Assembly (NCBI GenBank): GCA_049521795.1 | Contig: JBEKOM010000001.1 | Location: forward strand, 64,001 to 128,000 | DNA from: Candidatus Bathyarchaeia archaeon | GTDB taxonomy: Archaea; Thermoproteota; Bathyarchaeia; Bathyarchaeales; Bathycorpusculaceae | DNA: 64,000 nt | Direction: 5' to 3' | Shown: piece by piece, positions 6,870 to 37,018 of the stretch | Layout: every line of letters begins with the position of its first letter | How positions within the stretch are numbered: position 1 is the first letter of the stretch | Program-made: the position numbers and the translations under genes | Notes under the pieces: generated by a model | Seen by the model: the letters and a program-made list of their open reading frames with translations, nothing else | Told to the model about the DNA's origin: nothing | The model's database searches: none

Positions 6870-7691
6870 TTAATGCGTCCAATTCTTTGCTTTTTGCACT
6901 AGTTCAAAGGCTTCAATCCCTTTTAAAAAGGCCACATTTGAGTTGGAAGCGATTTGATTGATCAAGTCTGAGTATGCCCGCCCTCCCTTCATCATGATTG
7001 AATTATCGTGCCAGAGCAGCGTCATAATTTGAACGCCTGAAACGAAAAATCTTTCCATTGTCTTAAGCACAAATTTGATTATTGTTTTTTCTGTGAGACC
7101 CATATACGTAAATAGGTAGGCGTCCATGAATGTCACCGGGAAAACGACTAGACCGTTCTTACGCAGATAACCAGAATTTCTCGGGTCGACCCTTTCTTTG
7201 GAGTACGTCAGTGATGAGTCATATTTTAAACCTGCCTTAGCAAGGTTTGAAAAGGTGTTCTCAGAGACTTTCAAGTAGTGCACTCTTGACCCGTAAACTG
7301 ATCTTCCAACGGTTTTTTCAAGTGATCTCTTTTCGGAAAGGATCTCTCTGATGGTTGATGTGCTGTTTACGTGCAGACCTACTTCCCATCCGTTTTTCGC
7401 GAGTTCCTTCGTTGTATCTTCGTACTGCTCCACTGAGGTTCCGTCGTCGTATTTGGGTCGAAAGAAGAATGTGGAACGAATGTTGAATCTTTCTTCAATT
7501 TCCGTGACAGTTGGGACACCATAGTATGGATTGAAGCCTTCATCCGCAACCTTCCTCATTATGTCTGGATCGAATCTGCTTCGACGAGCCAAAATATGCG
7601 AGATTCCGGGACCTTTCCGAGGCCAATCGACATCATGCGTTACAACCAACGCGCGCATTCTTTCGGACAGAAGCGGCGAACTCGATTTCAA
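6870..7691 (-). CDS. polysaccharide deacetylase family protein
   Basis: THDVD, STFFF, EVGLH, GSRVHYL, YDSS and LLWH motifs. Confidence 0.85.
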   Translation of the reverse strand: MKSSSPLLSERMRALVVTHDVDWPRKGPGISHILARRSRFDPDIMRKVADEGFNPYYGVPTVTEIEERFNIRSTFFFRPKYDDGTSVEQYEDTTKELAKNGWEVGLHVNSTSTIREILSEKRSLEKTVGRSVYGSRVHYLKVSENTFSNLAKAGLKYDSSLTYSKERVDPRNSGYLRKNGLVVFPVTFMDAYLFTYMGLTEKTIIKFVLKTMERFFVSGVQIMTLLWHDNSIMMKGGRAYSDLINQIASNSNVAFLKGIEAFELVQKAKNWTH

Positions 7692-21793: not shown

Positions 21794-22381
21794 TTATCCC
21801 TGCTCTGCTTTCCTGATCGCAAGCTCGACTGGAAACACTCGCAATTTCTTGCCGTTCACCGGAATTATGCGTTCAGCAGGGTATCCACGCCTTTCACGCT
21901 TCAGAAAAGCAAGCTTGACGTCCAAGCCGCCTCCGTACCCACCCAGTGTCAAGTCCGCCCTTACAACTCGATGGCACGGGCAGACCGGTGCAAAAGGGTT
22001 TGAAGCCATGACCTGCCCAACAGCTCTCGGCCCTCCTCCGACGGTTTTGGCAACTTCACCGTACGTGGTCACGTAGCCCGGCGGTACCTTGCAAACGGTT
22101 TCGATTACTTTCTTAGTGTACTTTGGCAGATGCTCCTCGGCCAGGGAGAACGTTTGAGACACGTCTTTCCCATCGTAAATCTCCTTCAACGCTTCGATTA
22201 CAGAATGCGCAAACTCTGTTCTCTCTGGATTTTCCGCAGAACCATGAAAGCGGACACCCTCCCTCAATTCTCGTAGAGCATTGTTCTGAGTGAAGGCAAA
22301 AGTTGTCGCGTAGACAGATTCTTCTTCAAACGCGACTCCAAACCAGACATCTCCCACTTTCTCAGTGTAAACACTTATCAT
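21794..22381 (-). CDS. ogt: methylated-DNA--protein-cysteine methyltransferase
   Basis: TTYGEVA, RAVG, PCHRVV and GGYGGG motifs; start placed at ATG 22381. Confidence 0.9.
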   Translation of the reverse strand: MISVYTEKVGDVWFGVAFEEESVYATTFAFTQNNALRELREGVRFHGSAENPERTEFAHSVIEALKEIYDGKDVSQTFSLAEEHLPKYTKKVIETVCKVPPGYVTTYGEVAKTVGGGPRAVGQVMASNPFAPVCPCHRVVRADLTLGGYGGGLDVKLAFLKRERRGYPAERIIPVNGKKLRVFPVELAIRKAEQG

Positions 22382-22492
22382 GCTTGCTTCCTCTCGTAGA
22401 ACTATCGCCGCATCTAGTCTTATTTCTTGCTCCTCTAATTCAATCTTGCACGCACACGCTTCATTGAGAAAACCGCAAACACACTTGCCGAA

Positions 22493-23035
22493 GTGCGCGC
22501 GTTGAACGAAAAAGACTTGAACAACCATGAGAACCTGCGATGGGCATGGAATGTGATCGACAACGAAAGTCGATTTTGGCTTGCCTCTCAGATAACGGAG
22601 AAAAGGGAAATTGCAGACGCAAGACAGGTTCTGGCTCAAGCCTCAGGCCTTTCAAAAACGAGACCGATGGCAACAGTGACAGACGGACTGAGAGCCTATC
22701 AAGAGGCGATACCTAAGGAGATTTTCCCTTTGAAGGGGCCGAGGACTCAGCATGTTAATATTCCGAATATTAGAGATCGTTCCAACAACAACATGGTTGA
22801 AAGATTGCACGGAACGATTAGGCAGAGAAACAAGGTTATGCGAGGACTCGATGATCAAGAGACAGCACAGACAATGATGGATGGACTCAGAATTTACTAC
22901 AATTTCATAAGGCCGCACACTGCCCTAAACGGAAAAACGCCCGCACAAAAAGCAAATATTGAAACTGACAAGGCAGAATGGATGTCTCTAATTAAGAAGT
23001 CAAGTCAACATCAGAGGTTTGAGACAAGTTCTTAA
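22493..23035 (+). pseudogene. IS6-like DDE transposase, C-terminal half only
   Basis: Has WNVID..RFWLAS, VTDGL, NNMVERLHG and YNFIRPH..L.GKTPA. Lacks the first catalytic Asp (W..DE) and the N-terminal Zn domains. Confidence 0.85.
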
Positions 23036-24304
23036 GGCGTGGTAGGACTCTTATTCAAACATGGCAGGAATTGATGTTAATGTTTTGCTGAATACAATAC
23101 TTGGTGGAATCATAACGATCTCGGGAAGTCTTGCAGTTGCTGGATTGTACATAAGAAACCAAAATAAAAATCAAAGAAAAAGACGTCTGCAGGAGTTGAT
23201 TCAACAAACGTACTTCGAGCAGGGTATTCTCCCAGTCCTAGCAGCATTGTCAGAATATGGAACGAATACCGTATTTGCTTTAGCTGACACGAGAATATGG
23301 CTGGTAAGATGCTTCAGACTTGGAGAAGGTACTGAAGTTCTAAAAACACGATTGGAAGAGATTGCAAAACGTCCCGTGATAGTGGATTTAACTAGCCACA
23401 ATTTCACTAATGTTTTGAAGTGGCTTCCTACCCTTCAAAAATTCGGAATGCCATTGTATAGTTCAATCAAGAGAACTCTTCAATTCTACAGTAGCCTTGT
23501 AAGTGATGCAACTTCGTTTAGCTTATTGGAGAAAACCATTAAAAACTCTTCAGTTGAGGAGGTTGCTCGAAGTATGGGTGCAGTTGCCCAAATAATTGAT
23601 TTTACGCTAATGTATCTTGAAAAAAGATTTACAAACCTCAGAGACTATTTCTGGCAGCAGGAATTGGAGAATTACCACGATTTCTCGCAAGTGTTTTCAG
23701 ACACAAAATATCGTAACTTTCTATCAGTTATGGATCAGTATATGAAGCGGTTGACCCAATTGATGAATGCCATGCAATCAGAGAAGCCAGAGGACCGACC
23801 AAGAGAAACTCTTTCATTCAGCAAATGGCTAGGGGATAACTTGGACAATAACCCCCTTGAAAATAACGCCAAAACAGAAGAAGTACAGAAAATTGAAACA
23901 AAAAAGCCTAGTTAGATTTGCTTAACTTGGCAATCTTGCCTTTTGATAGAAACATCAATCATTAGAAAAATTCTATCTCAAGCAAAAAGTCTCCATAATA
24001 ATATTATGGAGCAAACAATACAGATTATTCCAGAGCTTATAGCGACTTTGATAAGCTCTTTGTCTGGTTCTCTTTGCCACCATTCTTTTATTTTGAGAAT
24101 AAACAAATCAATTCTAACCTTTGACGAATGAATCACCCTCTCATGCTCCAGTTTTTGAGAGAAAAGTTCATGCCTCGGAGAACCTGAATCATTGTTCTAT
24201 GTGGGTTTCCTGACAGATGGTTCATTCGACGAAGACTATATAGAACGATGGAAAAGCCCCGACAGTTAACAAACTTCTTTAAGCCCCGAAGAGTTAACAG
24301 AACC
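22500..24304. mobile_element. Element 0: left-truncated IS6-like cargo transposon remnant (right end preserved; left boundary approximate)
   Basis: 5'-truncated transposase. Right end ...CCCCGAAGAGTTAACAGAACC ends at 24304 and is followed by CTTTATCA. No left end was found. Confidence 0.75.
23061..23915 (+). CDS. hypothetical cargo protein with N-terminal TM helix
   Basis: 284-aa AT-rich ORF. Confidence 0.75.
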   Translation: MAGIDVNVLLNTILGGIITISGSLAVAGLYIRNQNKNQRKRRLQELIQQTYFEQGILPVLAALSEYGTNTVFALADTRIWLVRCFRLGEGTEVLKTRLEEIAKRPVIVDLTSHNFTNVLKWLPTLQKFGMPLYSSIKRTLQFYSSLVSDATSFSLLEKTIKNSSVEEVARSMGAVAQIIDFTLMYLEKRFTNLRDYFWQQELENYHDFSQVFSDTKYRNFLSVMDQYMKRLTQLMNAMQSEKPEDRPRETLSFSKWLGDNLDNNPLENNAKTEEVQKIETKKPS

Positions 24305-24312
24305 CTTTATCA
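24305..24312 (+). repeat. 8-bp target duplication CTTTATCA, copy 1
   Basis: CAGAACC|CTTTATCA|GGTTCTG junction. Confidence 0.9.
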
Positions 24313-24378
24313 GGTTCTGTAAACTTATCGGTTGGTGGTTCTGTGATAATGTAACCTTGCCTGTCATGGCATTAATGG

Positions 24379-24876
24379 CTACTGAGACTCTGTAATGTGA
24401 ATATCGTTTTGGATGTTGATCGCGACATTTAATCTAAGAGTCAGCGTTTTGAACCCAAGCTTTTGAGCGATCTGGAAAGAAGCTTTTTGATATTTCTTCG
24501 GTTCTGATTGATTGACCTTGACCTCAATAAAGAAGAGGTCACCATCTTTCTTTACGACAAAATCTGGAGCGATGCCGACACGACTATAATGACTTGCTAG
24601 CCTCGTTTCAGCCTCTTCCCTTGCCAACTTCCTTATAGCCTCAATGTATGCTTCCATATCTTCAAGTTTTCCACCAAAAAAGTCGCTAAAGAACTTGTCA
24701 AATTTTTCTGACTTTTTGCGATGCATATAGAAATCGAGTTTGAACATTATATCTCGGAACAAATGGACTTCATAGCCGTTTTGCTTCAAGTATTCTCTCG
24801 CTACTTTTTCCCCAATAGAACCGAACTCATTACTGACATTGACTTTCCATGTGCCGTCATTTGCACCTTTTGTCAT
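24379..24876 (-). CDS. PD-(D/E)XK nuclease (YraN/VRR-NUC-like)
   Basis: GEKVAREYL...GY and APDFVV...FIEVK motifs. Confidence 0.8.
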   Translation of the reverse strand: MTKGANDGTWKVNVSNEFGSIGEKVAREYLKQNGYEVHLFRDIMFKLDFYMHRKKSEKFDKFFSDFFGGKLEDMEAYIEAIRKLAREEAETRLASHYSRVGIAPDFVVKKDGDLFFIEVKVNQSEPKKYQKASFQIAQKLGFKTLTLRLNVAINIQNDIHITESQ

Positions 24877-25010
24877 GCCAACTACCTCAATAACAGTCTC
24901 CCAGTTGGGAGTATTAATCTGATCTGAAACTCGATACTGTAAACTTACCTGTCATGGGTTCTTGGGTTGAAATTTCTGGCATCGATTTTATTGGTACAAT
25001 GAGTGCGCGC

Positions 25011-25259
25011 TCATGATGTTATGCGAAAATAAGAATGATCGTATTCTGGAACGAAATCTGGTTTTCCCTTTTTGAGTTCATTCCAGACTTCTTTGAATGT
25101 TTCTTCTTTAGATTTTCCACTTTTTGCGATATGGCTCTTTCTTACTTCAGAATACACTAGCCGAAAGTGATTTTGAAGAGAACCCTTTACTCCTCTAGGA
25201 ATACGTGCCAAATCCTCTTTTACTTGTTGATTGAGAGTTTCTAGGCTTACCTTGACCAT
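25011..25259 (-). CDS. hypothetical protein
   Basis: 82-aa ORF with ATG start and GGAG upstream. Confidence 0.65.
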   Translation of the reverse strand: MVKVSLETLNQQVKEDLARIPRGVKGSLQNHFRLVYSEVRKSHIAKSGKSKEETFKEVWNELKKGKPDFVPEYDHSYFRITS

Positions 25260-25373
25260 GAGACGACATCTCCACTATAACAATCTTCATTTTCTTGATT
25301 AATACATATTTCCAACATTTTTTTGTTCAAATGAGCCCTAAGCACAAATCCGATTTTTCTTCTGTGAACCATT

Positions 25374-25583
25374 TTGAGTTATCGAAAACGACATGACGCT
25401 AAGAAATGGCTTGTCGTAAGAAGGAAAGGACACAGTATTATCCGAGTTGTCGCTGGAGAACGATATAGAACTAAAAAAAGAGCTCTGAAAGAGGCTAGGG
25501 ATTATAACAAAGCGTACAAGGGTTCCGATGTCAAGTTCATGGTCAGAAAAGAAGGGTGGAGAAGAAAGCGGTGGTGGTCATAA
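25374..25583 (+). CDS. small Arg/Lys/Trp-rich protein (paralog at 33944-34153)
   Basis: 69 aa; a same-length paralog with many synonymous differences lies in Element 2. Confidence 0.75.
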   Translation: MSYRKRHDAKKWLVVRRKGHSIIRVVAGERYRTKKRALKEARDYNKAYKGSDVKFMVRKEGWRRKRWWS

Positions 25584-25623
25584 TCAGGGTTCGACCCTTG
25601 TAAACTGGCATAAGATCACTTCT

Positions 25624-25689
25624 TAAAACGGGCCCTAACGCAACTTGGGAAAAAAGGGCCCTGATACAGCCTTCCTAAAACGGGCCCTA
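25624..25689 (+). repeat. three 14-bp direct repeats (T/A)AAAA(C/A)GGGCCCT(A/G) with 26-bp period
   Basis: Copies start at 25624, 25650 and 25676, separated by different 12-nt spacers. Confidence 0.8.
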
Positions 25690-25784
25690 TCTGATGCCTA
25701 ATAGAAAAATCCTAGCGGGCTTTGATAGGGTTGAAGCAAATGTTAAATTCTGAAGAGCATGAAACAAAAAATAAGGCTGAGGAA

Positions 25785-25919
25785 ATGCCACCAAAGAGAA
25801 CAAGTCAGAAGAAACCCAGAAAAAGAAGAGCTAGAAAAAAATCTAGCAAAGGCGGTTTCTGGGATGAAGTTGAAAAATTCCTTGGAATTAAGCAGACAAG
25901 GAAGAAGAGAGCAAGATGA
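25785..25919 (+). CDS. small basic protein upstream of PIN gene (possible antitoxin)
   Basis: MPPKRTSQKK...; its stop overlaps the PIN start (ATGA). Confidence 0.5.
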   Translation: MPPKRTSQKKPRKRRARKKSSKGGFWDEVEKFLGIKQTRKKRAR

Positions 25920-26464
25920 GAGTTTACTTGGATTCATGTATTCTCTTGGACTTTCTCCTAGATCGTAATGATGCATCGAGTCGTTTTATTGAGCATTTTG
26001 CGAAAGAACATGGGATAACTCTTATTCTGAGTAAATGGACACTAATCGAAACGCTCGGAGGCATGAAAGACAGATTTATGCTTCTGAAACTGATTTTTGA
26101 AGAGAACTTGGCTCCTGAAGAGGTACTGAGAAGGAGAAGAGAAATCGAGCCTAAGAAACATGAATTAAAAGGGCTACTCGATCAACTAAAGAGATTTGTC
26201 GAATATGATGTCAAAGGCATTGCTGAAGTTTTCGATGAACCAAACGCGACTTGGCATACGATTTTAGAGAGCTTGGAGACGCTCAAGGATACGGGACTTG
26301 ATGCTGGAGACGCTCTGCATCTCCATAATGCATTGAAAGCAAAATGCGATGTTTTCCTAACGCGAGATAGCCCTGCGACTAGAAGGGTAAAGAAATCCAA
26401 GCTAATGAAGATTCAAACTCCAGAAAATCTTATGAAAGACAGGAAAACTCACTCTTCAAATTAG
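25916..26464 (+). CDS. PIN-domain (VapC-like) nuclease
   Basis: VYLDSCIL, TLIE, DAGDALH and FLTRD motifs. Confidence 0.85.
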   Translation: MRVYLDSCILLDFLLDRNDASSRFIEHFAKEHGITLILSKWTLIETLGGMKDRFMLLKLIFEENLAPEEVLRRRREIEPKKHELKGLLDQLKRFVEYDVKGIAEVFDEPNATWHTILESLETLKDTGLDAGDALHLHNALKAKCDVFLTRDSPATRRVKKSKLMKIQTPENLMKDRKTHSSN

Positions 26465-27606
26465 CATTTTTTGCTCGCATTTTGTATTAGAGTTAGCCAC
26501 TTGTTCTTTCCTAGTTTCAGGTCTATGTTGGCTTGTTGTGCTGGAGTTTTTCCGTTTAGGGCTTGATGTGGTCTTATGACGTTGTAGTATGTTCTGTACG
26601 TTTCTGTCATTGTTTTTGCTGTGCGTTCTGTCTTTAAACCTCTCATAACCTTGTCTCGTTCTCTGATCGTGCCATGCAATCTTTCTATGATATTGTTGTT
26701 GGCTCTGCTTCTTATTCCAGCGTTTGCCATATGTTTTGTTCTCGGATTCTTCAGAGTCCAAAACTCCTTCTTGAAAGCTTCAGCGTACGAGCGTAAGCCA
26801 TCCGTGATTATGACCTCTGGATTATGTCCAACCTTTTCCTTAGCTTTTGCGAAAACTTGTCTTGCATCTGAAGCTTCCCTGCCTTCAGAAACATGAGACG
26901 CAAGTAAGTATCTGGTCGAATTGTCCATACAATTCCATAACCAGAGCCATTTTCCACCACAGCGGATTTTCATTTCATCCGTGTTCCAGACTTTTGATAG
27001 CTCTGGTTCAAGCTGGTCAACGTAGGCGTTGATGATTCGTCCATACTTCTGCAACCACTTGAAAACTCCCATCTGACTAATGTCTAAACCATAAAACTGC
27101 TTGATATGGTCAACGATCTTTCTGAGGCTTATGCCCTTGAAATAGAGGTCTAAAGCTAACGAAACAATTTTGGGATCGAACCGCATCCTAGCGAACCCTT
27201 CATCAACAACGAAGCTTTGACCGCAATCCTTGCACTTGAACCTCGGAGTTTTCACGTTTCTGTTCTTGCGGTAACCCCATTTGATAATGTTGACTGACCC
27301 ACAGAATTTGCAAGTGGAAGCCTCTGAAAATTCTCGGTAAAGCTGGAAAACATCAGCATTGTCAATTTTCTCTTTAAGGCTTATCCAGAAGCGAACAGCA
27401 AAAATGTGTTTGCAAACAACCTTTCGGTATTCGTGATCTGGGCAAGTGCAATCCCATTCTTTTCCGTTAGTTACAACATATTGACCGTTCCCAGATTGAC
27501 TTTTCACCTTGAATATGTGAGATTCTTTTTGCTCTATCTGCTCGTTTTGGGCTATTATTGCGAAGCCTCGAACCATTCTTCCGTTTGTCAGGTTTTGAGT
27601 TGTCAT
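26461..27606 (-). CDS. IS6-like DDE transposase with N-terminal SWIM finger and Zn ribbon
   Basis: CTCPD...CKH SWIM; CKFC/CKDC ribbon; catalytic triad WNTDE, ITDG, NNIIERLHG. Confidence 0.92.
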   Translation of the reverse strand: MTTQNLTNGRMVRGFAIIAQNEQIEQKESHIFKVKSQSGNGQYVVTNGKEWDCTCPDHEYRKVVCKHIFAVRFWISLKEKIDNADVFQLYREFSEASTCKFCGSVNIIKWGYRKNRNVKTPRFKCKDCGQSFVVDEGFARMRFDPKIVSLALDLYFKGISLRKIVDHIKQFYGLDISQMGVFKWLQKYGRIINAYVDQLEPELSKVWNTDEMKIRCGGKWLWLWNCMDNSTRYLLASHVSEGREASDARQVFAKAKEKVGHNPEVIITDGLRSYAEAFKKEFWTLKNPRTKHMANAGIRSRANNNIIERLHGTIRERDKVMRGLKTERTAKTMTETYRTYYNVIRPHQALNGKTPAQQANIDLKLGKNKWLTLIQNASKKC

Positions 27607-27692
27607 GTTGTTACACCTATTGGTATCTAATGGTATAATAGCAAATCTTAAATATAAAGGTTGCTAATGGTATCTATAGGTAGTGATTCAGA

Positions 27693-27830
27693 ATGCCTAT
27701 GAAGAAAATAATGGTATCAATGACGCAAGAAATGGTAGATGCCCTAGAAAAAGAGAGAAAAAAACGAAAACTAGCTAGTGTCCCTGAGGTGGTCAGACAA
27801 ATATTGGGAGAATACGTTTCTAGTGACTGA
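27693..27830 (+). CDS. ribbon-helix-helix (CopG-like) regulator, not in the ORF track
   Basis: MPMKKIMVSMTQEMVDALEKERKKRKLASVPEVVRQILGEYVSSD; divergent from the transposase. Confidence 0.75.
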   Translation: MPMKKIMVSMTQEMVDALEKERKKRKLASVPEVVRQILGEYVSSD

Positions 27831-28369
27831 AGTAAATGCTGGTCTTTCATGTCTAAGATCAAGCAAGAGATGCCACACTTTTCTATCAGAGAAGTTTCTG
27901 CCAACGAATCGGAAAAGCAATTCGTGCTTGCGACCCTTCTCTAGTGAGAGTGTCGGCATCCCAAACACTTGTTCATCCTGAACAAGCTGGAAAAGGGCAT
28001 GTTTGTCTTTTGTTATTGTACACAATCTTACTGAGATTGTTTGATCAGGATCAAGGTCAAAAGGCGCAAGTTTTTCTGGAAAATTAAGGTCTAAAGTGCC
28101 ATACTCGCGCAAAAGCTTAGGCGGTTTCGGTCTCATGGGCAATTTTTGTTTTACTTTAAATTTGACCCTAACACCAATAGCTGTTCGTTTTCCAGCATTG
28201 TGAAGGTAGAAAGAGCAATCATTTGTTCCTACATGGCAATCTTCGATTCTAAGTTTCGGCTTGTTGATAAAAAACGGTAAAGCTCTATAACCGCTGAAAT
28301 TGCCGAAAACGTGAACAGGACTATCAGAATCGCATCCGTCCAACTCGTTATAATCGGAATCGCTGACAT
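27771..28369 (-). pseudogene. frameshifted membrane-anchored hypothetical cargo gene
   Basis: ATG 28369 gives the TM segment MSAIPIITSWTDAILIVLFTFSAISAVIELYR. One extra T in the T6 run (28269-28274) would join it to FFINKPKLRIEDC... Confidence 0.6.
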
Positions 28370-28459
28370 GAGAAAACGGTTTATGGCTATTGCAATATAA
28401 GGTTATTCTCTGAAGGTCAATTCCCAAAAAAAAGAACCAACCGATAAGTTTACAGAACC

Positions 28460-28467
28460 CTTTATCA
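28460..28467 (+). repeat. 8-bp target duplication CTTTATCA, copy 2
   Basis: CAGAACC|CTTTATCA|GGTTCTG junction. Confidence 0.9.
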
Positions 28468-28802
28468 GGTTCTGGTAACTTCATGGGCGACAGAGAACCC
28501 TGTTAAATTTCGGGTGATGATTTCCCTTTTCGAGAAAAGGGTGTTAACAGTCGGGTGATAGACCCTTCAAGTGGGAAGGTGAGGGAAAGGGCAATAGGGA
28601 AGGAAAAATCTTTGCCTCTTCCCTCTCCTTGTACTGTTTCTTCTCCCTTCTCCTTCCCTCAAAACTTAGTTGAATAATCAAATATGGCTTATGGAGGATA
28701 GTTCTAGAGGAATCTTCTATTCAAATTCATCAAAAACAATTCTGTTTGATTAAGGGACCTGTACTAGAAAGAAAAAGATAATTGGTTTGTGGGGATGTAG
28801 GC

Positions 28803-29129
28803 TTACTTCTTTTTCATTGCTGCGATTTTAGCTTTTAGAACTGCTCTTATGGTTTCCTTGGCTTTCTCGTATGATATTATCTCATGCACGTCAGAGACAA
28901 CGTAAGGAGAGAATATGAGTACACGCTTGTAGGAATCTGCAGTTTCCCCTTTGCCGATTACGTATCCAGAGTATCCATCGTGGAAAGCCCCCCACTCTTC
29001 AATCTCTCCCTTCTTAATCATTCCATCCATGCTTGCAAACATCATTTCGTAGAGTTCTAAGAGCTTAGAAGGGTCTGTAGGCCATGGTGCTGACGGATTG
29101 AAGTGCCAAAAGTTTAGAAATCTAGCCAT
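28803..29129 (-). CDS. hypothetical protein (DUF3303/dimeric alpha-beta barrel-like)
   Basis: 108 aa, GGAGG SD, GEIEEWGAF..GYSGY pattern. Confidence 0.6.
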   Translation of the reverse strand: MARFLNFWHFNPSAPWPTDPSKLLELYEMMFASMDGMIKKGEIEEWGAFHDGYSGYVIGKGETADSYKRVLIFSPYVVSDVHEIISYEKAKETIRAVLKAKIAAMKKK

Positions 29130-29222
29130 TCAAGCCACCTCCCGTTATAGTTGTGTTTTGGGATGTTTGTTATAACTTCTATTTAAAATCATGGAAGAAT
29201 GGCAGAAAATGAGGAAAACAAC

Positions 29223-30356
29223 CTAGGGTTTGTTCTTAGACGCGTTCTCTATGATGGTTTTCCATTTGTCTTGTCCTTGAACCGTTATGCCGCATGCTTC
29301 CGCTGGAGTCTTTCCACCTAAGCTTTCATGGGGTCTGACATAGTTGTGGAAGAGTTGATAACCCGAGAGTATTGCTGAATCTTCTTTCTTTAAGCCTCTG
29401 AACACTTTCTCACGATCTCGGATTTCACCGTTCATGCGTTCCATCTTATTGTTCTCATGTTTTCCACGGAAGCTGATTTGTCGAATATGTTCAGTCCTAG
29501 GGCCCTTGAGAGTCCAGTATTCTTTCTTGTAAGCTTCATGATAAGACCTCAACCCGTCAGTGATTATGGTTTTCGGCTGTTTCCCCATAAGCTCCTTGCT
29601 CATTCGAAACAGCCTTCTCGCATCGTGCGAGACTTTTGTTTCAGCTACCTCTTGAGCGATCCAGAAACGAGTCTCATCATCCATCATGGCAAAGAGGTAT
29701 TTCATATCGCCCTTAATCTTGACATAAAGCTCATCTGCTCTCCATGTATCGCTAACGTTTGGTTTTATTTTTTCAAGGTAATCATTCATCAGCTTCACAT
29801 ATTTTCGTATCCACTTCAAAACTGAAACGTGGCTTACTGAAACGCCCTGTAGCTTGAGGAACTTCTGAACGTTTCTGAGTGATTCTCCAGTGAAGTATAG
29901 CTGCATTGCCGAGGTTATGATTTGAGGCGAGGCTTTCATTCCCTCAAAGCCCACGTTGACCGAGAACCGTTTTCCACATGATTTGCATAGGTATCGCTGA
30001 ATATCGTATTTCTTGTTATGTCGTACTGCGTCTTTGACTATTTGCTCTGAACCACAATAGATGCATTTTGAAGTGTTCAAAGGAGCGATGACAACGTTCT
30101 TCTTGACTTGTTCCTTGATTCTTATGCTGGTCTCAACCGCAAAAATGTGTTTGCACTTTACCTGTCGAAACCTGTTATCTGGACATTCACAAGTCCATTC
30201 ATTGTCAACTTTGGAAACAGCGTATTCGCCGTTTCCTGATTGCGAAAGAACGGTATAGAAATTTTCTTCTACTTGTTTGACTTGGCTTTCTTTATGGGCT
30301 ATTTCTAAGCCTCTTTCTTCTCTCAAATTTTCAGTCACGTTCATGGTTACATTCAC
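29223..30356 (-). CDS. IS6-like DDE transposase with N-terminal SWIM finger and Zn ribbon
   Basis: CECPD...CKH SWIM; CIYC/CKSC ribbon; catalytic triad WRADE, ITDG, NNKMERMNG. Confidence 0.92.
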   Translation of the reverse strand: MNVTMNVTENLREERGLEIAHKESQVKQVEENFYTVLSQSGNGEYAVSKVDNEWTCECPDNRFRQVKCKHIFAVETSIRIKEQVKKNVVIAPLNTSKCIYCGSEQIVKDAVRHNKKYDIQRYLCKSCGKRFSVNVGFEGMKASPQIITSAMQLYFTGESLRNVQKFLKLQGVSVSHVSVLKWIRKYVKLMNDYLEKIKPNVSDTWRADELYVKIKGDMKYLFAMMDDETRFWIAQEVAETKVSHDARRLFRMSKELMGKQPKTIITDGLRSYHEAYKKEYWTLKGPRTEHIRQISFRGKHENNKMERMNGEIRDREKVFRGLKKEDSAILSGYQLFHNYVRPHESLGGKTPAEACGITVQGQDKWKTIIENASKNKP

Positions 30357-30456
30357 CGATAGATGTATCTATGCATGGCTACTAATAAATGTGTCGGTAG
30401 CTATATAGATAAAGTTATAAATAAAGCCACCTATACGTTTATCGGAAGATGTTTCG

Positions 30457-30705
30457 ATGAAATCAAAAGACAAATTAGGCGAAAAGTTAATAACAGTGCT
30501 TGGTGAGGCCAGCGAACCGCTGGAGACGAAGGAGATAGAGGAGAAGGTGCCAGCGGAAACGAGATCAAAGATTTTCAATCGATTGAAAGACCTGAGAGGC
30601 GAGGGTCCCATTAAAGGTAAAATGGTGGGTTCTGGCAAAGGAACGTGGGTTTGGTGGGACAAGAATGCTTTTGCAAGACCAAACAGAACGGAGAGTAAAA
30701 AATGA
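30457..30705 (+). CDS. winged-helix DNA-binding protein
   Basis: PLETKEIEE...TRSKIFNRLKDLRGEG.I.GK...WVWW; divergent from the transposase and overlapping the next gene. Confidence 0.7.
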   Translation: MKSKDKLGEKLITVLGEASEPLETKEIEEKVPAETRSKIFNRLKDLRGEGPIKGKMVGSGKGTWVWWDKNAFARPNRTESKK

Positions 30706-33374
30706 GTCTGAGCGAACAATTACTGCAGGTTGTTCCTCAGAAAATAGGCAAGTATTTGTACTACCGTCTTGGCGAAACAACGATTAATCAACTTGTGAAT
30801 TTCGGTCTCATACCGAAAATTGATTATGGTGCATTGATAGCTAAAAAACCAGACGGCTTAATTGTCCATCATAAGGAAGTCAAAGGGATAGTAGAAGCGA
30901 AAAGTCCTGATGAGCTTAACACTACCGAGAAAGAGAATATTGCCATCTCACAGGAAAAGGATGTTGCAAAGAAACTGTGCAAGTTGCTGATAATCACTGA
31001 CAATAGTTCAAAGACTCTTTGGATTAACCCTTTAAATGGGGGAAGAATAAAAGAAAAGAATGGCTCTGAAGTAAGAGCAGTATTCGACGCTAAGTTCACA
31101 AAGAACGTTAATGAGATTGAACGTCTAATTGAGGAAATAGACCTTTCAATCAACGAAACAAACTCAACACTTCGCGAAGAGAAGATCATAGACCCTTCTG
31201 ATCTCGCTCGCCAGATGTGGCAAACTATCTGGGTAGCAACTGGAAAATCTCCAATAAAATGCCTATACAATGTCGTAGAACTCCTCATTTTCAAGTTCCT
31301 GAGCGATCTAAAGGTGCTGGAAGATGAGTATGCTTTCAACCACGTTTACGAAATCTCAAAGACAGACCCAGAAGAAGCTCTGACATTCTACGCACGAAAT
31401 TCAAGAGTGAAGATATTAGAACTTTTTCCAGAGGGAAAAGACAAGACAACTCTGATCAACGGAACAATTTTCGTAAATGAAAGTGGCAAGGCCAATCTAT
31501 CTCAAGCTGTCTTATTTCACCATTCTTTAAAACACCTCTATGAGTACGAATACAATTTCGGCACTTTCATCAAGATAGATAAGAGCTTCAAAACCAAATT
31601 ATACGAGACCTTTCTCAAACAAGAAGTTGAGGCACTAGGACAATATTTTACGACCAGAAAAATCGTTCAATCAATGATAAGGCTATCGAAACTGGACGAG
31701 GAAGAATTTGATTTTAAGGGCAAAAGAATTTGTGACCCGTTTTGCGGAGTCGGTGGCTTCCTACTCGAAATCTTGAATTTGAATGATCGAATGAAACAGT
31801 GTTATACTCCAGATGAAAATGGCGTTATTGACCTTCCTTTCACCATACATGGATTCGACAAGGGATTCGAGAAAGATGATGAAAGAACGATCATATTGGC
31901 TAAGGCAAACATGCTCATCTACCTCACTGACATCATTTTCAGAAATCCTAACGCAACGAAGGAGTTTGCCAGAGTTTTTAATGAAACCTTCACATTGTTC
32001 AGAGACAATCTGGCCACGTTTGCTCACATAATCGAGAAAGAAGATGAAAAGTACGACTACATCCTGACCAATCCACCATACGTCACACGTGGAGCTAGAG
32101 TTATCAAAGAAGAAATCAAGACCAAAGGGCTGAAGCAATATTATCCGATAAATGCTTCAGGACTGGAAGGAATAAGCATCGAATGGGTAGTGCGAAGCCT
32201 GAAGAAAGGGGGAAAAGCATTCATCATCGTTCCCGATGGAGTAGCCGAAAGGGAACTTGCATCTGACAAACGACTGAGAGAATACATCATTCAAGAATGT
32301 TATCTGGATGCAATAATCTCTCTTCCTGTACGAACCTTCTTTGCAAATTTCAGGAAAACCTACATCATAGCAATAACGAAGAAAGCCAAAGTGGATGACG
32401 TGCAAAAGCACGGAGTGTTCACCTATCTTGTCTCTGACATAGGGGAAGACTTAACGAAAAAGAGAAGAGAAGAGATACCTGAAAATGATCTACCAGAAAT
32501 GGAAAAATTGTTCGCTTTATACTCAGCTATCAAAGACTCACCTTCTGATTATCCCCTCATAAAAAGCCAAAGATGCAAAATATTGACTCTTGCTGAACTA
32601 GAGTTATTGGGTGGGGAGCAAAAACGCTGGAGAATTGAGAAGTTCTGGTCAGAGACAGAACTAAAGGAAATGAAATTGTTAGAGGATAAGGTCGAGCTTC
32701 AAACCGTGCTTGACTCATTGGAGAATTCGAAGGAATACATTAGAAAACTGATGCTTGCAAGGGAAAACATTCCAATAAGTGCAGGCCAAGTCAAGGTATT
32801 CAAAGTATCTGACCTATTCGATTTCGAAAGTGAGAAAGTAAGAGGATACATGAAATACACTAAGAAATACTGTAGAACACACAAAGGGGATTATCCAGTT
32901 TATTCAGGAATGACATATAATGATGGGTTAATAGCGATGATCGACCATTATGATTACGATGTCAAACAATGTCTAACGTGGACTGCTGACGGAGTTTATG
33001 CTGGCACAGTATTCCTAAGAGAAGGCAAGTTCAGCATGACCTACCATTCAGGGATTCTTTTGCCGAAAGGAAAGCTAGCAGAACCCCATTCTGCCTATGA
33101 TGTAAACGGAATCTATCTGCCTTATGTTTATCATGTTTTGAACAACAAACTGAGGAAGTTTGCTTTAGGACAAGAGAAACAGAACAAGAGGGTGACCGTA
33201 CGGGTTATGAAGGACATTGAAATCGAGATGCCAATCATGGATGAGAAAACTTTTGACAAGAAAAAACAAGAAGAGATGTCGATACAATACAATGCGCTTG
33301 AGCTAGCTCTTGATGAAGCAGTTCAAGCTAAAAATGAAGCCATAGAGATGTTGAAAAATGCACTCGGTAGATGA
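30702..33374 (+). CDS. fused restriction-modification enzyme (PD-(D/E)XK nuclease + N6-adenine MTase + TRD; type IIG-like)
   Basis: KPDG...VEAK, GQYFT, DPFCGVGGFL and NPPY motifs; C-terminal HsdS-like TRD (YPVYSG, WTADG..AG). Confidence 0.85.
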   Translation: MSLSEQLLQVVPQKIGKYLYYRLGETTINQLVNFGLIPKIDYGALIAKKPDGLIVHHKEVKGIVEAKSPDELNTTEKENIAISQEKDVAKKLCKLLIITDNSSKTLWINPLNGGRIKEKNGSEVRAVFDAKFTKNVNEIERLIEEIDLSINETNSTLREEKIIDPSDLARQMWQTIWVATGKSPIKCLYNVVELLIFKFLSDLKVLEDEYAFNHVYEISKTDPEEALTFYARNSRVKILELFPEGKDKTTLINGTIFVNESGKANLSQAVLFHHSLKHLYEYEYNFGTFIKIDKSFKTKLYETFLKQEVEALGQYFTTRKIVQSMIRLSKLDEEEFDFKGKRICDPFCGVGGFLLEILNLNDRMKQCYTPDENGVIDLPFTIHGFDKGFEKDDERTIILAKANMLIYLTDIIFRNPNATKEFARVFNETFTLFRDNLATFAHIIEKEDEKYDYILTNPPYVTRGARVIKEEIKTKGLKQYYPINASGLEGISIEWVVRSLKKGGKAFIIVPDGVAERELASDKRLREYIIQECYLDAIISLPVRTFFANFRKTYIIAITKKAKVDDVQKHGVFTYLVSDIGEDLTKKRREEIPENDLPEMEKLFALYSAIKDSPSDYPLIKSQRCKILTLAELELLGGEQKRWRIEKFWSETELKEMKLLEDKVELQTVLDSLENSKEYIRKLMLARENIPISAGQVKVFKVSDLFDFESEKVRGYMKYTKKYCRTHKGDYPVYSGMTYNDGLIAMIDHYDYDVKQCLTWTADGVYAGTVFLREGKFSMTYHSGILLPKGKLAEPHSAYDVNGIYLPYVYHVLNNKLRKFALGQEKQNKRVTVRVMKDIEIEMPIMDEKTFDKKKQEEMSIQYNALELALDEAVQAKNEAIEMLKNALGR

Positions 33375-33432
33375 ACTGCGCAAAAGACTTATTTGGTTAC
33401 TCTTTTAACATAAAAATGGATGGTGTGGTCCA

Positions 33433-33621
33433 GTGCCAAAGTGTCCAGAATGTAAGAAAGAAGTGACTAGACCTTCTAAGAAATGGAAATATAGTGTGTT
33501 CACTGTCGAGCTATTTGACTGTGGTTGTGGAACGCAATTTAGAGAATATTCAAAGAAGGGGAAGTACAGCCACACACTGAAGATCAAAAAAGGCAGAGAC
33601 AAAAATTACAGCAAAGTTTGA
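33433..33621 (+). CDS. small Zn-ribbon protein, Cren7-like
   Basis: KCPEC...PSKKW...VELFDCGCGTQFR. Confidence 0.6.
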   Translation: MPKCPECKKEVTRPSKKWKYSVFTVELFDCGCGTQFREYSKKGKYSHTLKIKKGRDKNYSKV

Positions 33622-33637
33622 ATATTTTCAATTAACC

Positions 33638-33808
33638 CTATTTCTTACTGGCCTTTGGGATTGTATGGCTTAATTTTCCTTCAAAATAATAAGCTTTGAA
33701 ACACCTTTCACATTTAGGGCAATCAAACCTCTTTGCGTGAAAGCTTGCGTAGTCCCATTCTCTTGTGGGTTTTGGGACTTCTGTATTGCAACGAGGACAC
33801 TTGACCAA
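33638..33808 (-). CDS. small Zn-ribbon protein, Cren7-like paralog
   Basis: TTG start; KCPRC...PTREW...FDCPKCERCFK...GKLSHT. Confidence 0.6.
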   Translation of the reverse strand: MVKCPRCNTEVPKPTREWDYASFHAKRFDCPKCERCFKAYYFEGKLSHTIPKASKK

Positions 33809-33943
33809 AATGCGACACCCAGTGACTCTTACATGTTTTATGTTAATAATACTTTTCTGACTGATAAACTCGTTATCAACCGATTTTTGACAAGGGCTTG
33901 TATCAACGAAAGACTTCACAGAACCCCACAAATTACTCAATCG

Positions 33944-34153
33944 TCAAGAGTACCAGCGTTTTCTTCTCCAACCTTCCCGTCGCACCATAAACTTGACATC
34001 AGAACCCTTGTACGCTTTGTTCCATTCTCTAGCTTCCTTCTCAGCCTTCCTCTTAGTCCTATAACGTTCTCCAGCAACAACGCGGATAATGCTGTTTCCT
34101 TTCCTTCTCACGACAAGCCATTTCTTAGGAGAAGGTCGTCTTTGATAACTCGT
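33944..34153 (-). CDS. paralog of the 69-aa basic protein (ACG at the start position; not in the ORF track)
   Basis: xSYQRRPSPKKWLVVRRKGNSIIRVVAGERYRTKRKAEKEAREWNKAYKGSDVKFMVRREGWRRKRWYS; same 210-bp length as 25374-25583. Confidence 0.7.
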   Translation of the reverse strand, partial: TSYQRRPSPKKWLVVRRKGNSIIRVVAGERYRTKRKAEKEAREWNKAYKGSDVKFMVRREGWRRKRWYS

Positions 34154-34256
34154 AGGGGCTCACAAAAGAAAAATCTGAAAAGTTACAGGTTCACAGAACA
34201 GCCTAATAGAAGAAAGAAAAAGCTTGAAGAATCGCTATAGGTCAGATTGCAGTTTT

Positions 34257-34553
34257 CTAACAGACTACCATTTTCTTCATTGGATACTCTTGGACATTCT
34301 CTGGTTTCTTGACGGCTGCGATCATCATCAGTTGTACTTCTTTGTTTGTATTTTCTATTTGCACATCGTTTCTGCTTCTCAAGAAGGTAAGTAGTTCGTG
34401 ACAGAATGATCTGGACGCAAAGATTATGTTTGAAAAATCTATTTGAACTGTCTGTCCTGACGGTACGTCTGAGATTCTTTTGGTTACTAACAAAGCAGTT
34501 TCTCTATCTCGCAATGTGTTCGTACCGAACATGTCGTATAGACTTATTTTCAT
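34257..34553 (-). CDS. STAS-like (DUF4325-type) protein
   Basis: VQIDFSNIIFASRSFCHEL. Confidence 0.7.
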   Translation of the reverse strand: MKISLYDMFGTNTLRDRETALLVTKRISDVPSGQTVQIDFSNIIFASRSFCHELLTFLRSRNDVQIENTNKEVQLMMIAAVKKPENVQEYPMKKMVVC

Positions 34554-34626
34554 GTTTTCTCTCTCCCTTTCAAGAGAAAGTTCTCACTTATGCTTAATTA
34601 AGTTAACGATGTAATGATTCGATTCT

Positions 34627-35454
34627 CTATTGTAAGTACTGATACATGATGTCTGTAGCCTTGAGCTTAAACCTTATTCCCACGAAAGAACCTTCCCACT
34701 CGAAACCAATTTGGTACGGAATACTTTCCTTCTTGTGGATGTACAACAAGGAATCGCCAGACAAGACGATGACCTCTCCACCATAACCTTCAACAAACAT
34801 CCTTACTATTGTTGGGATTCCTGTTCCTCGCTCCTGAACTGGTGATTTAGAGGATTTGCCTTCTAACGCATTGGTAATCGCATCTAGATGAGTTCTAACT
34901 TCGTATGGTGTTCCACGATAGGATTCTCTATAGCCAATACCAGTATCGCACATTGCGATTTCGCATGTTCTCATTGCGTTCCAGTACTGTGCAAGTATCC
35001 AGTAGTTGTTGACCCTTGCATGTTCCCGAATGTTTGCTACTATCTCACTGGTCAGAAGTTTTAAACTATTGGTTGAGGGTTCTCGGTTTTTTTCAGGAAG
35101 CTTACTTAAAATCAGGTCTTCATAGGTACTCAATACGCAGTTTTCTTTGTCATCGCATGAAAGTTGGGTTATGGGAAGAAAGTTCTTAGAAGATTCCAAT
35201 TTGGTTGTGCCTTGCTGAAAGGAAATCGCCTCAAGATAAGTCTGAATACCAGAGTCTTCCTCAGTGCAATTGATTGAGACGGCATGATTATTAGCGTATA
35301 CTGCAAGAGGCAAAATTGAGATCGGAGTTACCCACCCAACTGGACGCATTTCATTAGAGTCTTTTCCATCAACTACCGTCTGGTGTAGCTCCTTGAGATT
35401 GCCGATCAGTTCAAGAAGCCTTTTGCTTGTGCTGTACTCTCGACTCAATTGCAT
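34627..35454 (-). CDS. HATPase_c (GHKL) ATP-binding protein
   Basis: EIVANIREHA N-box, DTGIG and RGTGI motifs. Confidence 0.8.
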   Translation of the reverse strand: MQLSREYSTSKRLLELIGNLKELHQTVVDGKDSNEMRPVGWVTPISILPLAVYANNHAVSINCTEEDSGIQTYLEAISFQQGTTKLESSKNFLPITQLSCDDKENCVLSTYEDLILSKLPEKNREPSTNSLKLLTSEIVANIREHARVNNYWILAQYWNAMRTCEIAMCDTGIGYRESYRGTPYEVRTHLDAITNALEGKSSKSPVQERGTGIPTIVRMFVEGYGGEVIVLSGDSLLYIHKKESIPYQIGFEWEGSFVGIRFKLKATDIMYQYLQ

Positions 35455-35628
35455 GAACCATAAATAAGGTTGTGCAAGTTTTAAGATTTATCGCCATTGG
35501 ACTAGACATATATTAATCAAAATGCTTTCGTAATTCATCACCCGACAGTTAACATGGAGAGTTGGAATGGTTGTTTTGTCACCCGATTCTTAACGGCTTT
35601 TCCTATCGCCTATGAAGTTACCAGAACC

Positions 35629-35636
35629 CTTTATCA
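35629..35636 (+). repeat. 8-bp target duplication CTTTATCA, copy 3 (junction with host DNA)
   Basis: CAGAACC|CTTTATCA|TTAAGTTTAATA, 48 bp upstream of the psmB ATG. Confidence 0.9.
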
Positions 35637-35684
35637 TTAAGTTTAATAGTTTGTCCGTGCATAAAACGGGAAAGGCGTTGTCAC

Positions 35685-36302
35685 ATGGAAAAGCAATCGC
35701 AGAATGGTTACATGTTCATTCCGGGGGCCACAACTGTCGGCGTAATCTTCAAAGATGGTGTTATTTTGGCCTCTGAGAAGCGGGTTTCATATGGTTATCT
35801 CATCGTGAGCAAGACGGGAAAGAAGGTTTTCAGGCTGACGGACCACATAGGCGCGGCTTGTGCCGGACTGGTCTCTGACATGCAGGTTCTCATCAGAGAG
35901 GTCCAAGCCTACGGAAACCTGTTCAACCTGGATGTTGGCCGACCCATATCGGTCAGATCGGCTGCTAAGCTCATGTCAAGTCTACTCTTCAGCCGTCGGT
36001 TGGCACCTCTCATCACGCAGACAATCGTCGGGGGAGTGGACAAAGAGGGCCCCTCACTCTATTCGCTAGACCCACTGGGTTCGGTGCTTCCTGACAAGTA
36101 CACAGTCGTTGGGTCGGGAACGGAGATTGCGATGGGAGTCGTCGAGGAAGGATACAAGGATAACATGGGGATGGATGAAGCGAAGGACCTGGTCATGAGG
36201 GCAATGAAGTCTGCCGTGAGCAGAGACGTAATGAGCGGAGACGGGATAGATTTTCTGATAATAACTAAGGATGGAATCAGCGAAGAATCAATGAAATTTT
36301 AG
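35685..36302 (+). CDS. psmB: proteasome subunit beta
   Basis: GATTVG, ASEKR, AGLVSD, GSG and RDVMSGDG motifs. Confidence 0.93.
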   Translation: MEKQSQNGYMFIPGATTVGVIFKDGVILASEKRVSYGYLIVSKTGKKVFRLTDHIGAACAGLVSDMQVLIREVQAYGNLFNLDVGRPISVRSAAKLMSSLLFSRRLAPLITQTIVGGVDKEGPSLYSLDPLGSVLPDKYTVVGSGTEIAMGVVEEGYKDNMGMDEAKDLVMRAMKSAVSRDVMSGDGIDFLIITKDGISEESMKF

Positions 36303-36379
36303 GCCTCCCGTTCTCAGCAAAGATTTAAACTTTGATCTCTGCACACTAGTTATCTCCGCGACGCGGGGAGGGTTCAGAA

Positions 36380-37018
36380 TTGTCGTTTCAGCTTAGCCAG
36401 AATGAAGGAAGTTTTCTCGTGAAGCTGGCACGGAAGGCCGTTGAAGAGTATTTGAAAACTGGGAAACACGCGAAGATTCCGATGGGTGTCTCAGAACAAC
36501 TACTAAAACCATGCGGGGTCTTCGTTACCATAAACAGGCTTGAGGGTGACAAGAAAGCTCTCAGGGGATGCATTGGCTTTCCATACCCCACGACGCCGCT
36601 GGTTGAAGCAGTCGTAGAGTCTGCGATAAGCGCGGCAACTCAGGACCCAAGGTTTCCACCCATTTCTCTCAGCGAACTTGATCACGTTGTCTTCGAGGTG
36701 AGCGTGCTCACGCCTCCTGAGACGGTGGAGGTGAAAAACCCGAAGGAATACTGCGCCCAGATCAAGGTGGGCGAAGACGGTTTGATCGTTGAAAGAGGCT
36801 TCTGCAAGGGACTGCTCCTGCCTCAAGTGCCTGTCGAATGGGAATGGGATGAGGAGACCTTTCTCTGTCAATGCTGCCTCAAGGCTGGCTTGCCTCCAGA
36901 TTCTTGGCTTGTGAAAGGCACGAAGATTTACAAGTTCAGTTCCATCATTGCCGAAGAGCTTTCACCCAAAGGCGAAGTAGTGATGGTCGATATGCGAAAG
37001 AAAACGAGGGCCAAGTAG
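36380..37018 (+). CDS. AMMECR1-domain protein
   Basis: GVFVT, LRGCIG, DPRF and GLLLPQV motifs. Confidence 0.92.
   Translation: MSFQLSQNEGSFLVKLARKAVEEYLKTGKHAKIPMGVSEQLLKPCGVFVTINRLEGDKKALRGCIGFPYPTTPLVEAVVESAISAATQDPRFPPISLSELDHVVFEVSVLTPPETVEVKNPKEYCAQIKVGEDGLIVERGFCKGLLLPQVPVEWEWDEETFLCQCCLKAGLPPDSWLVKGTKIYKFSSIIAEELSPKGEVVMVDMRKKTRAK

Follow-up and report, generated by a model that had tools for sequence, protein, structure and literature searches.

How do several different transposons come to lie end to end at one 8-bp target beside a housekeeping gene? The question is raised by a stretch of 64,000 nucleotides from a Candidatus Bathyarchaeia archaeon (assembly GCA_049521795.1, contig JBEKOM010000001.1, positions 64,001 to 128,000; hereafter the window), where three cargo-carrying elements with IS6-type transposases, E0, E1 and E2, stand between ogt and the proteasome beta subunit gene psmB. 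Coordinates are window positions unless prefixed; G000 is the window's genome (2.44 Mb), C1, C2, C4 and C11 are contigs of G000, and L007 and L117 are the loci of genomes G001 and G002. As unit transposons, E0, E1 and E2 belong to a single widespread archaeal family, of which each is a different member. The answer that we consider probable is that insertion in this family keeps a fixed distance from TATA-like boxes, so that each insertion recreates the next target.

Three elements joined by one 8-mer

Along the locus the order is E0 remnant, CTTTATCA, E1 (24313-28459), CTTTATCA, E2 (28468-35628), CTTTATCA, TTAAG, TTTAATAG and psmB. The three copies of the 8-mer lie on the plus strand at 24305-24312, 28460-28467 and, on the host side, 35629-35636. 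Bare CTTTATCA is not significant: the window has 5 matches where 2.47 are expected, and a count of 5 was reached in 13 of 100 shuffles. The composite CAGAACC-N8-GGTTCTG occurs twice (24298-24319 and 28453-28474) against 0.02 expected, a count of 2 that none of 100 shuffles reached. Each full element has its own ends: the inverted ends of E1 match at 24 of 24 positions and those of E2 at 24 of 26, the E2 arms extending to 50 nt at 80% in a repeat search. The two transposases are 43% identical, and the cargo is unrelated apart from one 225-nt stretch that has 81% identity and lies in inverted orientation. An earlier note on this DNA, made from the sequence alone, had described an array of elements with separate terminal inverted repeats and diverged transposases, and these figures bear it out.

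Such a pattern could in principle come from a collapsed or chimeric join at repeated ends, as the ends of different elements have 7-14 nt in common, enough to mislead short-read assemblers. Independent Logan contigs argue otherwise. In run X1, possibly the source sample, one contig covers 23008-29094 with both internal junctions and 0 differences and a second covers 29070-36500, and all three junctions are thus bridged. The E0/E1 junction is bridged again by contigs of two other samples, X3 (23773-24335) and X4 (24228-24608), and the same type of junction is found in a related single-chromosome record (L007:8762/8771) and in many unrelated assemblies. The junctions are not artefacts of this assembly, and we give a faulty join next to no chance. 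A search for the exact junction pattern over 401 genomes of the class returned 10 genomes against 6 for the reversed control, and the raw pattern count is therefore no evidence; among the 10 junction loci outside G000, ends supported by a hidden Markov model (HMM) stand on both sides in 6, on one side in 2 and on neither in 2.

Target duplications and empty sites

Across the family, 33 end pairs carry matching 8-mers (at most one mismatch), 4 of these pairs spanning two adjacent array members, and the metagenome loci add 23 further pairs, 22 of them perfect. Two loci (L026 and L031) resemble 9-bp duplications. The earlier note had proposed that the elements use one dedicated attachment sequence, and a sequence-specific site CTTTATCA would fit the three copies in the window, the identical 8-mer beside a solo end upstream of the seryl-tRNA synthetase gene serS (C1:556379), and the similar 8-mers CTTTATCG in L029 and CTTTATTA in L019. 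Over the 33 and 23 end pairs, though, the duplicated 8-mers vary from locus to locus, the information per duplicated position is just ~0.1-0.25 bits, and the third full element of the same genome (C1:584502-588352) has duplicated CGCAGCTG. Given the varied 8-mers and this low information content, we rejected a strict CTTTATCA attachment site, which now seems scarcely credible.

Sites without an insertion are found in relatives. That of the third G000 element is empty in G001 and G002, with a single 8-mer (CGTAACTG and CGCAACTG, respectively) and the flanks joined. The psmB site is empty in four genomes of the same genus (G006, G003, G008 and G005), each with one diverged copy of the 8-mer, for example CTTTGACA or TTGTGTCA. 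The G006 allele reads ...gggagaagtctccgtct-CTTTGACA-TTAAGTTTAATAGG and matches both outer flanks of the L007 array, whose outer left flank reads ...gggagaagtctccacct-CTTTATCA up to the junction; because the left part of the G006 allele matches this outer left flank, an empty psmB allele exists, of the single-8-mer kind that the earlier note had expected in relatives. The element at C2:127958-129548 gave no clean empty site, its two flanks mapping apart from each other in both G001 and G002.

Insertions lie at a fixed distance from TATA-like boxes

If no particular 8-mer is read, what do the insertion sites have in common? We read flanks outward from the junction and scored as a box any 8-mer with at least 7 of 8 A/T that starts at positions 11-17. 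The first set comprised 99 non-tandem flanks from 53 contigs and loci (G000 and species genomes; end E <=0.1, one orthologous duplicate dropped). A box was present in 56 of these flanks, against 24 in a window shifted to 31-37 and 26 in one shifted to 46-52 (paired counts 41:9 and 38:8, p about 6e-6 and 9e-6); at random intergenic positions of G000 the rate is 15.6% (binomial p about 1e-20 for the first set). The held-out loci from IMG/VR and the class sample gave 12 of 23 flanks at 11-17 and 7 of 23 at 31-37. Eighty metagenome loci, fetched afterwards, have the same peak, with 51 of 95 flanks at 11-17, 23 at 31-37 and 20 at 46-52 (paired count 37:9, p = 4e-5). Box starts peak at 11-15 (30-33%, background ~10%), and a strict match to TTTAWATA, which we take as the consensus, peaks at start 14. 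The box typically begins ~5 nt past the 8-mer, often after cAAnc and ending AG, and A stands at positions 10-11 in 51-60% of flanks. Counted by site, at least one outer flank has a box in 26 of 29 sites, compared with 35.8% of random intergenic sites (p = 2.6e-9). By inspection, the side with the box faces either element end about equally often, and, judged by eye, the flanking A/T box does not vary with the element-specific repeats of the ends.

The boxes are also linked to genes. An outward open reading frame (ORF) of at least 80 amino acids starts 32-100 nt from the junction in 27 of the 56 flanks with a TATA-like box, against 4 of the 43 others (Fisher p = 2.7e-5). At psmB (35685..36302, plus strand; Pfam Proteasome, E 3.9e-55) the putative core promoter (35637..35649, plus strand) consists of TTAAG, at the position of a B recognition element (BRE), and the TATA-like box TTTAATAG, which starts 5 nt past the duplication and ends 35 nt before the ATG. 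A cATTAAGTTTAATAG block upstream of psmB is conserved in genomes of the same genus and the same family. The 8-mers most enriched upstream of G000 ORFs are CTTAAATA, AAGTTATA and AAAGCTTA, to which the psmB box conforms, and since these look like the flank motif, that motif resembles the host's own promoter. The A/T boxes are likely to be working promoters. As a separate observation, the GC-alternating 8-mers GCGCGCGC, CGCGCGCT and TAGCGCGC are ~3-fold enriched 20-75 nt upstream of G000 ORF starts and also occur in several flanks.

Could selection alone have placed the insertions here? Random insertion followed by loss would leave only copies that spare genes and core promoters. Archaeal genomes are compact and offer few neutral sites, the ogt-psmB spacer lies between divergent genes, and the A/T background further out in the held-out set is high (7 of 23). 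Selection of this kind, though, would permit any distance upstream of the BRE and leaves unexplained both a peak confined to starts 11-17 and the exact reuse of 8 bp, seen at psmB with four or more types of element and in same-8-mer arrays elsewhere. We regard it as very unlikely; survivorship may sharpen the pattern, and it cannot yield nucleotide-exact reuse. The earlier note had held that variable 8-mers at random loci would tell against its proposal; the 8-mers do vary, but the loci are not random, lying at a fixed spacing from TATA-like boxes and returning, as described below, to proteasome-beta promoters.

Arrays and recurrent promoters

Four close genomes, 90-93% identical here, have four different arrays at the same psmB site, which is a hot spot for the family. 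G000 has the E0 remnant, E1 and E2. G001 (L007) has a decayed remnant with the degenerate 8-mer TGTTATCA, a 735-nt non-autonomous element and an E1-type element, while the G002 array consists of another element and then a full 6570-nt E0-type element, and G010 retains an E2-type end remnant only, with the 8-mer GTTTATCA. E2 is absent from the psmB site in L007/G001 and G002. The E1 counterpart in L007 has only the transposase and an unknown ORF in common with E1 (87% at the nucleotide level) and is inverted, with other cargo. These four arrays, all from one genus, agree with the earlier note's proposal of serial insertion into the same 8 bp. The arrangement recurs at nine or more other loci: tandem junctions whose 8-mer equals the outer duplication also occur in L007, L117, L010, L013, L023, L025, L043, L068 and G130, and the L043 array has three copies of its 8-mer. 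Wherever the outer flank is known, a box stands at one end of the array, and in the window, L007 and L013 the decayed members are the distal ones.

An alternative is that an incoming element is drawn to the element already in place, the psmB promoter being a chance first landing; insertion of the IS30 or IS3 type at inverted repeats would be one precedent. Tandem flanks are indeed frequent (22 of 132 in the first set, 13 of 36 in the held-out set and 13 of 109 in the metagenome set), far above what ~2000 equally used promoters would give. All ends have GGTTCTG and a GTTAAC-like first repeat, and for this reason transposases of different elements might bind foreign ends. IS26, too, prefers to integrate beside a resident copy, according to passages of PMC7986276. 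The same passages, though, describe the IS26 route as requiring identical copies and leaving no duplication, whereas here the neighbours are 40-50% identical and each junction has a full 8-mer. Single non-tandem insertions already stand at the fixed TATA spacing, which resident ends cannot explain, and proteasome-beta promoters have been hit independently in distant lineages. Resident-directed targeting is thus an unlikely account of the whole pattern, and position is better explained as set by the promoter; a pull from resident elements may act on top of promoter targeting.

Which promoters are reused? Of 26 flanks on the TATA side that have an outward ORF nearby, 4 lead into a proteasome beta gene, namely those of the window, L022, L025 and L042. 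In L022, L025 and L042 the beta subunit is 40-45% identical to that of the window, and these loci have different 8-mers and are without ogt or AMMECR1 synteny. In the replicate metagenome set, ends at L213 and L217 lie 55-103 nt upstream of a beta-subunit gene. Proteasome-beta promoters have therefore been hit in six separate lineages, a finding made post hoc and then replicated. Upstream of a gene for an ECF-transporter S component, ends stand at homologous positions in G000 (C11:77889), L038 (L038:4139) and probably L043 (L043:14995); these sites share the flank ...TTAAGAGTAACTAC... and differ in their 8-mers, with 10 nt, not 5, separating the A/T box from the duplication. The solo end upstream of serS (C1:556325-556379, also L124:3326-3380) is followed by CTTTATCA and then by TAAGG-TTAAATAG, with the serS ATG 38 nt past the box; we found neither a partner end nor a transposase for this solo end. 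G000 encodes three TBP and three TFB paralogues (three loci on C4, C1:165357 and two loci on C2). Promoter-specific use of these paralogues could underlie the hot spots.

How insertion might recreate its own target

We think it probable that the family reads no particular 8-mer and that the 8 bp it duplicates end ~5 nt upstream of an A/T-rich, TATA-like box with A-rich, BRE-like bases before it. The insertion point would then be the upstream edge of an archaeal core promoter, with the element in either orientation. Because the core promoter and one copy of the 8-mer remain intact on the gene side, the target would be regenerated by each insertion. The next element, even one whose transposase is only 40-50% identical, could cut the same 8 bp and produce a head-to-tail stack with its newest member beside the promoter. 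In the window the elements would have arrived in the order E0, E1, E2. Certain promoters are reused repeatedly, the proteasome-beta promoter being a notable case.

Several points weigh against this proposal. The promoter status of the A/T boxes rests on their position, on enriched host motifs and on downstream ORFs. Few flanks make up the held-out set, in which the internal control is also high, and the random-intergenic null comes from one genome only. By our criterion 3 of 29 sites lack a box; the spacing varies from 2 to 10 nt, with the L010 and L043 boxes at 9-10 nt. Survivorship, through loss of insertions elsewhere, may contribute to the pattern. In 9 of 9 arrays the element nearest the promoter is intact, but this count is biased, because the loci were found through intact transposases. 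Nor can the order of arrival simply be read from shared ancestry, since L007 has its counterpart of E1 in inverted orientation and with other cargo. Tandem junctions are also far commoner than equal use of ~2000 promoters would give, and to account for them there must be strong hot spots or else some further attraction by resident elements.

How would a promoter be sensed? The zinc-finger N-terminus might read DNA shape or sequence, or it might recognise a complex bound by TBP and TFB. One version of the latter, which we put forward tentatively and think rather unlikely, is that the SWIM/zinc-ribbon N-terminus reads the archaeal pre-initiation complex, or DNA bent by TBP/TFB, and integrates at its upstream edge, with constitutive promoters like that of psmB acting as class-wide safe harbours. 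A complex prediction for host TBP, the TFB core and transposase residues 1-135 (alignment A2) came out with next to no confidence, far short of the mark, and weighs neither way.

The transposon family

The transposases of E1 and E2 both match Pfam DDE_Tnp_IS240 (E 5e-21 and 6e-18) together with SWIM, and score 138 and 129.3 bits against the NCBIfam IS6 equivalog NF033587, whose cut-off is 125. IS6 is the best model match and the sole one above its own cut-off; for a Mutator/IS256-type core, the Pfam Transposase_mut score was just 21.4 bits (E 1.3e-4), and NCBIfam IS256, with a cut-off of 150, reached 38.7 bits. Over their 362-414 amino acids the proteins have a SWIM zinc finger at the N-terminus, then a CxxC...CxxC zinc ribbon and a DDE core of the IS6 type. 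Residues that never vary among the 54 transposases aligned are C56, C58, C68 and H70 of the SWIM finger, C98, C101, C124 and C127 of the zinc ribbon, and D208, D267 and E306. A PDB sequence search with the 54-sequence profile returned 0 matches.

GGTTCTG stands at nearly all ends and is followed by 2-3 direct repeats, ~30 nt apart, of a ~16-nt motif that is GTTAAC-like and continues with NNNCG and a tail particular to each element. With a profile made from 20 ends (inner 60 nt of each), ~29 ends were located in G000, which has, besides its third full copy at C1:584502-588352, three transposase fragments. A scan of one genome per species yielded 102 relatives, mainly in Bathyarchaeia, Methanoperedens and Nitrososphaeria, IMG/VR has 5 full-length copies, and JGI metagenomes have at least 576 relatives. 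Among loci L023, L067, L068 and L069-L085, family transposases of full length also occur on contigs binned as Saccharibacteria, Parcubacteria and Limnocylindrales, which could reflect mis-binning or transfer, and many bacterial contigs match just the first ~80 transposase residues, the SWIM region.

Elements measure 0.7-8.8 kb (from 719 nt without a transposase), those with a transposase 2.2-8.8 kb, including 1-7 kb of cargo. When the ORFs of 34 delimited elements were clustered, the transposase was the sole widely shared gene (31 of 34); the other 3 are short non-autonomous derivatives. The earlier note's picture of a cargo-carrying family with a single transposase, GGTTCTG ends and 8-bp duplications is supported. 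Non-autonomous elements with family ends and 8-bp duplications lie at C1:604087-604805 (719 nt), L007:8028-8762 (735 nt) and C2:127958-129548 (1591 nt), and one such derivative has a 168-aa ORF. With the transposase the sole gene family common to most elements, an accessory target selector is absent. Pfam and NCBIfam scans of the E0-E2 ORFs found no Tns-type protein, with one transposase per element, and no tyrosine or serine recombinase domain; the ends are inverted repeats with target duplications. Recurrent cargo among the 34 elements comprises, in 6 of them, a fusion of a methyltransferase and a specificity domain that resembles the 890-aa E2 protein, in 6 a small basic protein, and further AbrB-like (6), ribbon-helix-helix-like (5) and ParB-like (3) proteins. 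The earlier note had called the cargo defence-type, which fits the methyltransferase-specificity fusion and the PIN protein of E1; only part of the cargo is of this kind.

Gene content of the array

On its left the island borders ogt, the host 6-O-methylguanine DNA methyltransferase gene (21794..22381, minus strand; Pfam DNA_binding_1, E 6e-27), and host homology with L007 and L117 ends at about 22491-22493. On this E0 side the window lacks ~330 nt of host sequence that L007 retains at 7355-7680. The E0 remnant (22491..24304) is truncated on the left and retains a C-terminal transposase fragment (22493-23035, plus strand; DDE_Tnp_IS240, E 1.5e-15), and an unknown ORF of 284 amino acids (23061-23915, plus strand); its right end (about 24249-24304; end-HMM match C1:88304(-), E 2.7e-08) is intact and has a pair of subterminal direct repeats. 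The same type of end is found on the full 6570-nt element adjoining psmB in G002 (L117:11764-18333). In a contig of X3, another peat sample, an E0-type end (at window 24304) runs into GACAAAGA-AAATG-TTTAATAGG, a further site with a box 5 nt past the presumed duplication.

E1 (4147 nt; terminal inverted repeats 24313-24336 and 28436-28459) encodes a weak nuclease-like ORF (24379-24876, minus strand), a small basic ORF (about 25374-25583, plus), a PIN-domain ORF (25916-26464, plus), the transposase (26461-27606, minus) and an unknown ORF (27771-28484, minus). An end-like sequence within it at 24933-24962 (GATACTGTAAACTT...) is an 88% match to subterminal motif two at the left end of E1 and may be an older left boundary.

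E2 (7161 nt) has on its minus strand a 108-aa ORF (28803-29129), the transposase (29223-30356), a zinc-ribbon ORF (33638-33940), a homologue of the small basic ORF (about 33944-34111), a weak STAS-like ORF (34257-34553) and a weak HATPase-like ORF (34627-35454), and on its plus strand the 890-aa fusion of an N6-methyltransferase with a specificity domain (30702-33374). Because a solo end of another family member lies within it (about 33870-33925, minus strand), E2 is a mosaic; no partner for this end, at window 33925, was found at HMM E <=1. In X3 and X4 contigs the region 33616-34583 stands at 29-308x depth against 2-5x elsewhere, and this piece is therefore abundant elsewhere in those samples. 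The stretch common to E1 and E2 (25352-25575 and, inverted, 33952-34175; also L007:11931-12170(-)) encodes the small basic protein found in 6 of the 34 elements, with the motif ...VVRK.G...R[IV]VAG..[FY]RTKK.A... and at most a hint of Pfam DUF2188 (E 0.25). For the cargo ORFs of 284, 237, 108, 275 and 98 amino acids, Pfam, NCBIfam and PADLOC gave nothing or sub-threshold hints.

Comparison with known systems

Where does this family belong? By transposase model, ends and duplication it is part of the IS6 family; by size, cargo, N-terminal domains and complex ends it lies outside the family as described. Like IS26, IS257 and IS6100 it has an IS6-type DDE transposase, and its GGTTCTG ends agree with the IS6 pattern of ends that start GG with G at position 7 (in passages of PMC6807381), as its duplications agree with the 8 bp given in parts of PMC7986276. 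Known members, in the latter source's description, are 789-880 bp long with a transposase of 213-254 amino acids as the only gene. Unlike these small single-gene elements, the window family measures 2.2-8.8 kb with cargo inside its inverted ends; its transposases of 362-414 amino acids have SWIM and a zinc ribbon in place of a short N-terminus with an H-HTH only, and 2-3 subterminal repeats per end and promoter-proximal targets set it further apart. A further comparison is with the ISCpe7 group of long clostridial IS6 relatives and the archaeal IS6-like clades, which likewise have an N-terminal zinc-finger extension and longer terminal repeats. They are single-gene insertion sequences of 1.2-1.5 kb, and the portion of PMC6807381 that describes them mentions no SWIM, cargo or target rule; that portion also questions whether archaeal and long zinc-finger members belong to the family. 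Our full-text literature search found no SWIM-bearing IS6-like cargo transposons and no archaeal promoter-edge targeting, though an ISfinder entry for such elements may exist, and the words TATA, promoter, IS6 and SWIM are absent from an archaeal Tn7 preprint (bioRxiv 10.1101/2025.07.27.667033).

The choice of targets by archaeal transposons is poorly known. If the spacing rule is true, it would explain integrase-free islands beside housekeeping genes in Bathyarchaeia, Methanoperedens and Nitrososphaeria, and it would offer a simple core-promoter marker for uncultured archaeal lineages. A single-protein transposase with predictable, gene-sparing insertion would also be a possible archaeal genetic tool, and the rule could be tested as a parallel to the way in which some eukaryotic retrotransposons home on complexes that initiate transcription.

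Arrays of IS26 translocatable units resemble the psmB array in the serial, IS6-type build-up of passenger DNA at one place. As passages of PMC7986276 describe them, they have one identical insertion sequence between segments, require identical copies and leave no duplication, whereas each unit in the window has its own ends and a diverged transposase, with a full 8-mer between units. Tn7 at attTn7 is alike in that its insertion keeps a defined distance from a landmark of the host and leaves that landmark intact, a safe site; it does so with TnsABC and a target selector, and its target immunity blocks a second insertion (from parts of PMC11014353). Unlike Tn7, the window family has one transposase and many landmarks, and the stacking of unlike elements is common. 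Yeast Ty3 is a retrotransposon with an integrase and integrates at RNA polymerase III start sites through TFIIIB. If the window family does read a pre-initiation complex, it would resemble Ty3 in its fixed distance from a TBP-containing complex, in inserting in either orientation and in leaving the gene functional, and would be a prokaryotic counterpart of Ty3-TFIIIB targeting in which unrelated cargo transposons pile into islands. The nearest functional analogues are Tn7 at attTn7 and Ty3 at RNA polymerase III genes.

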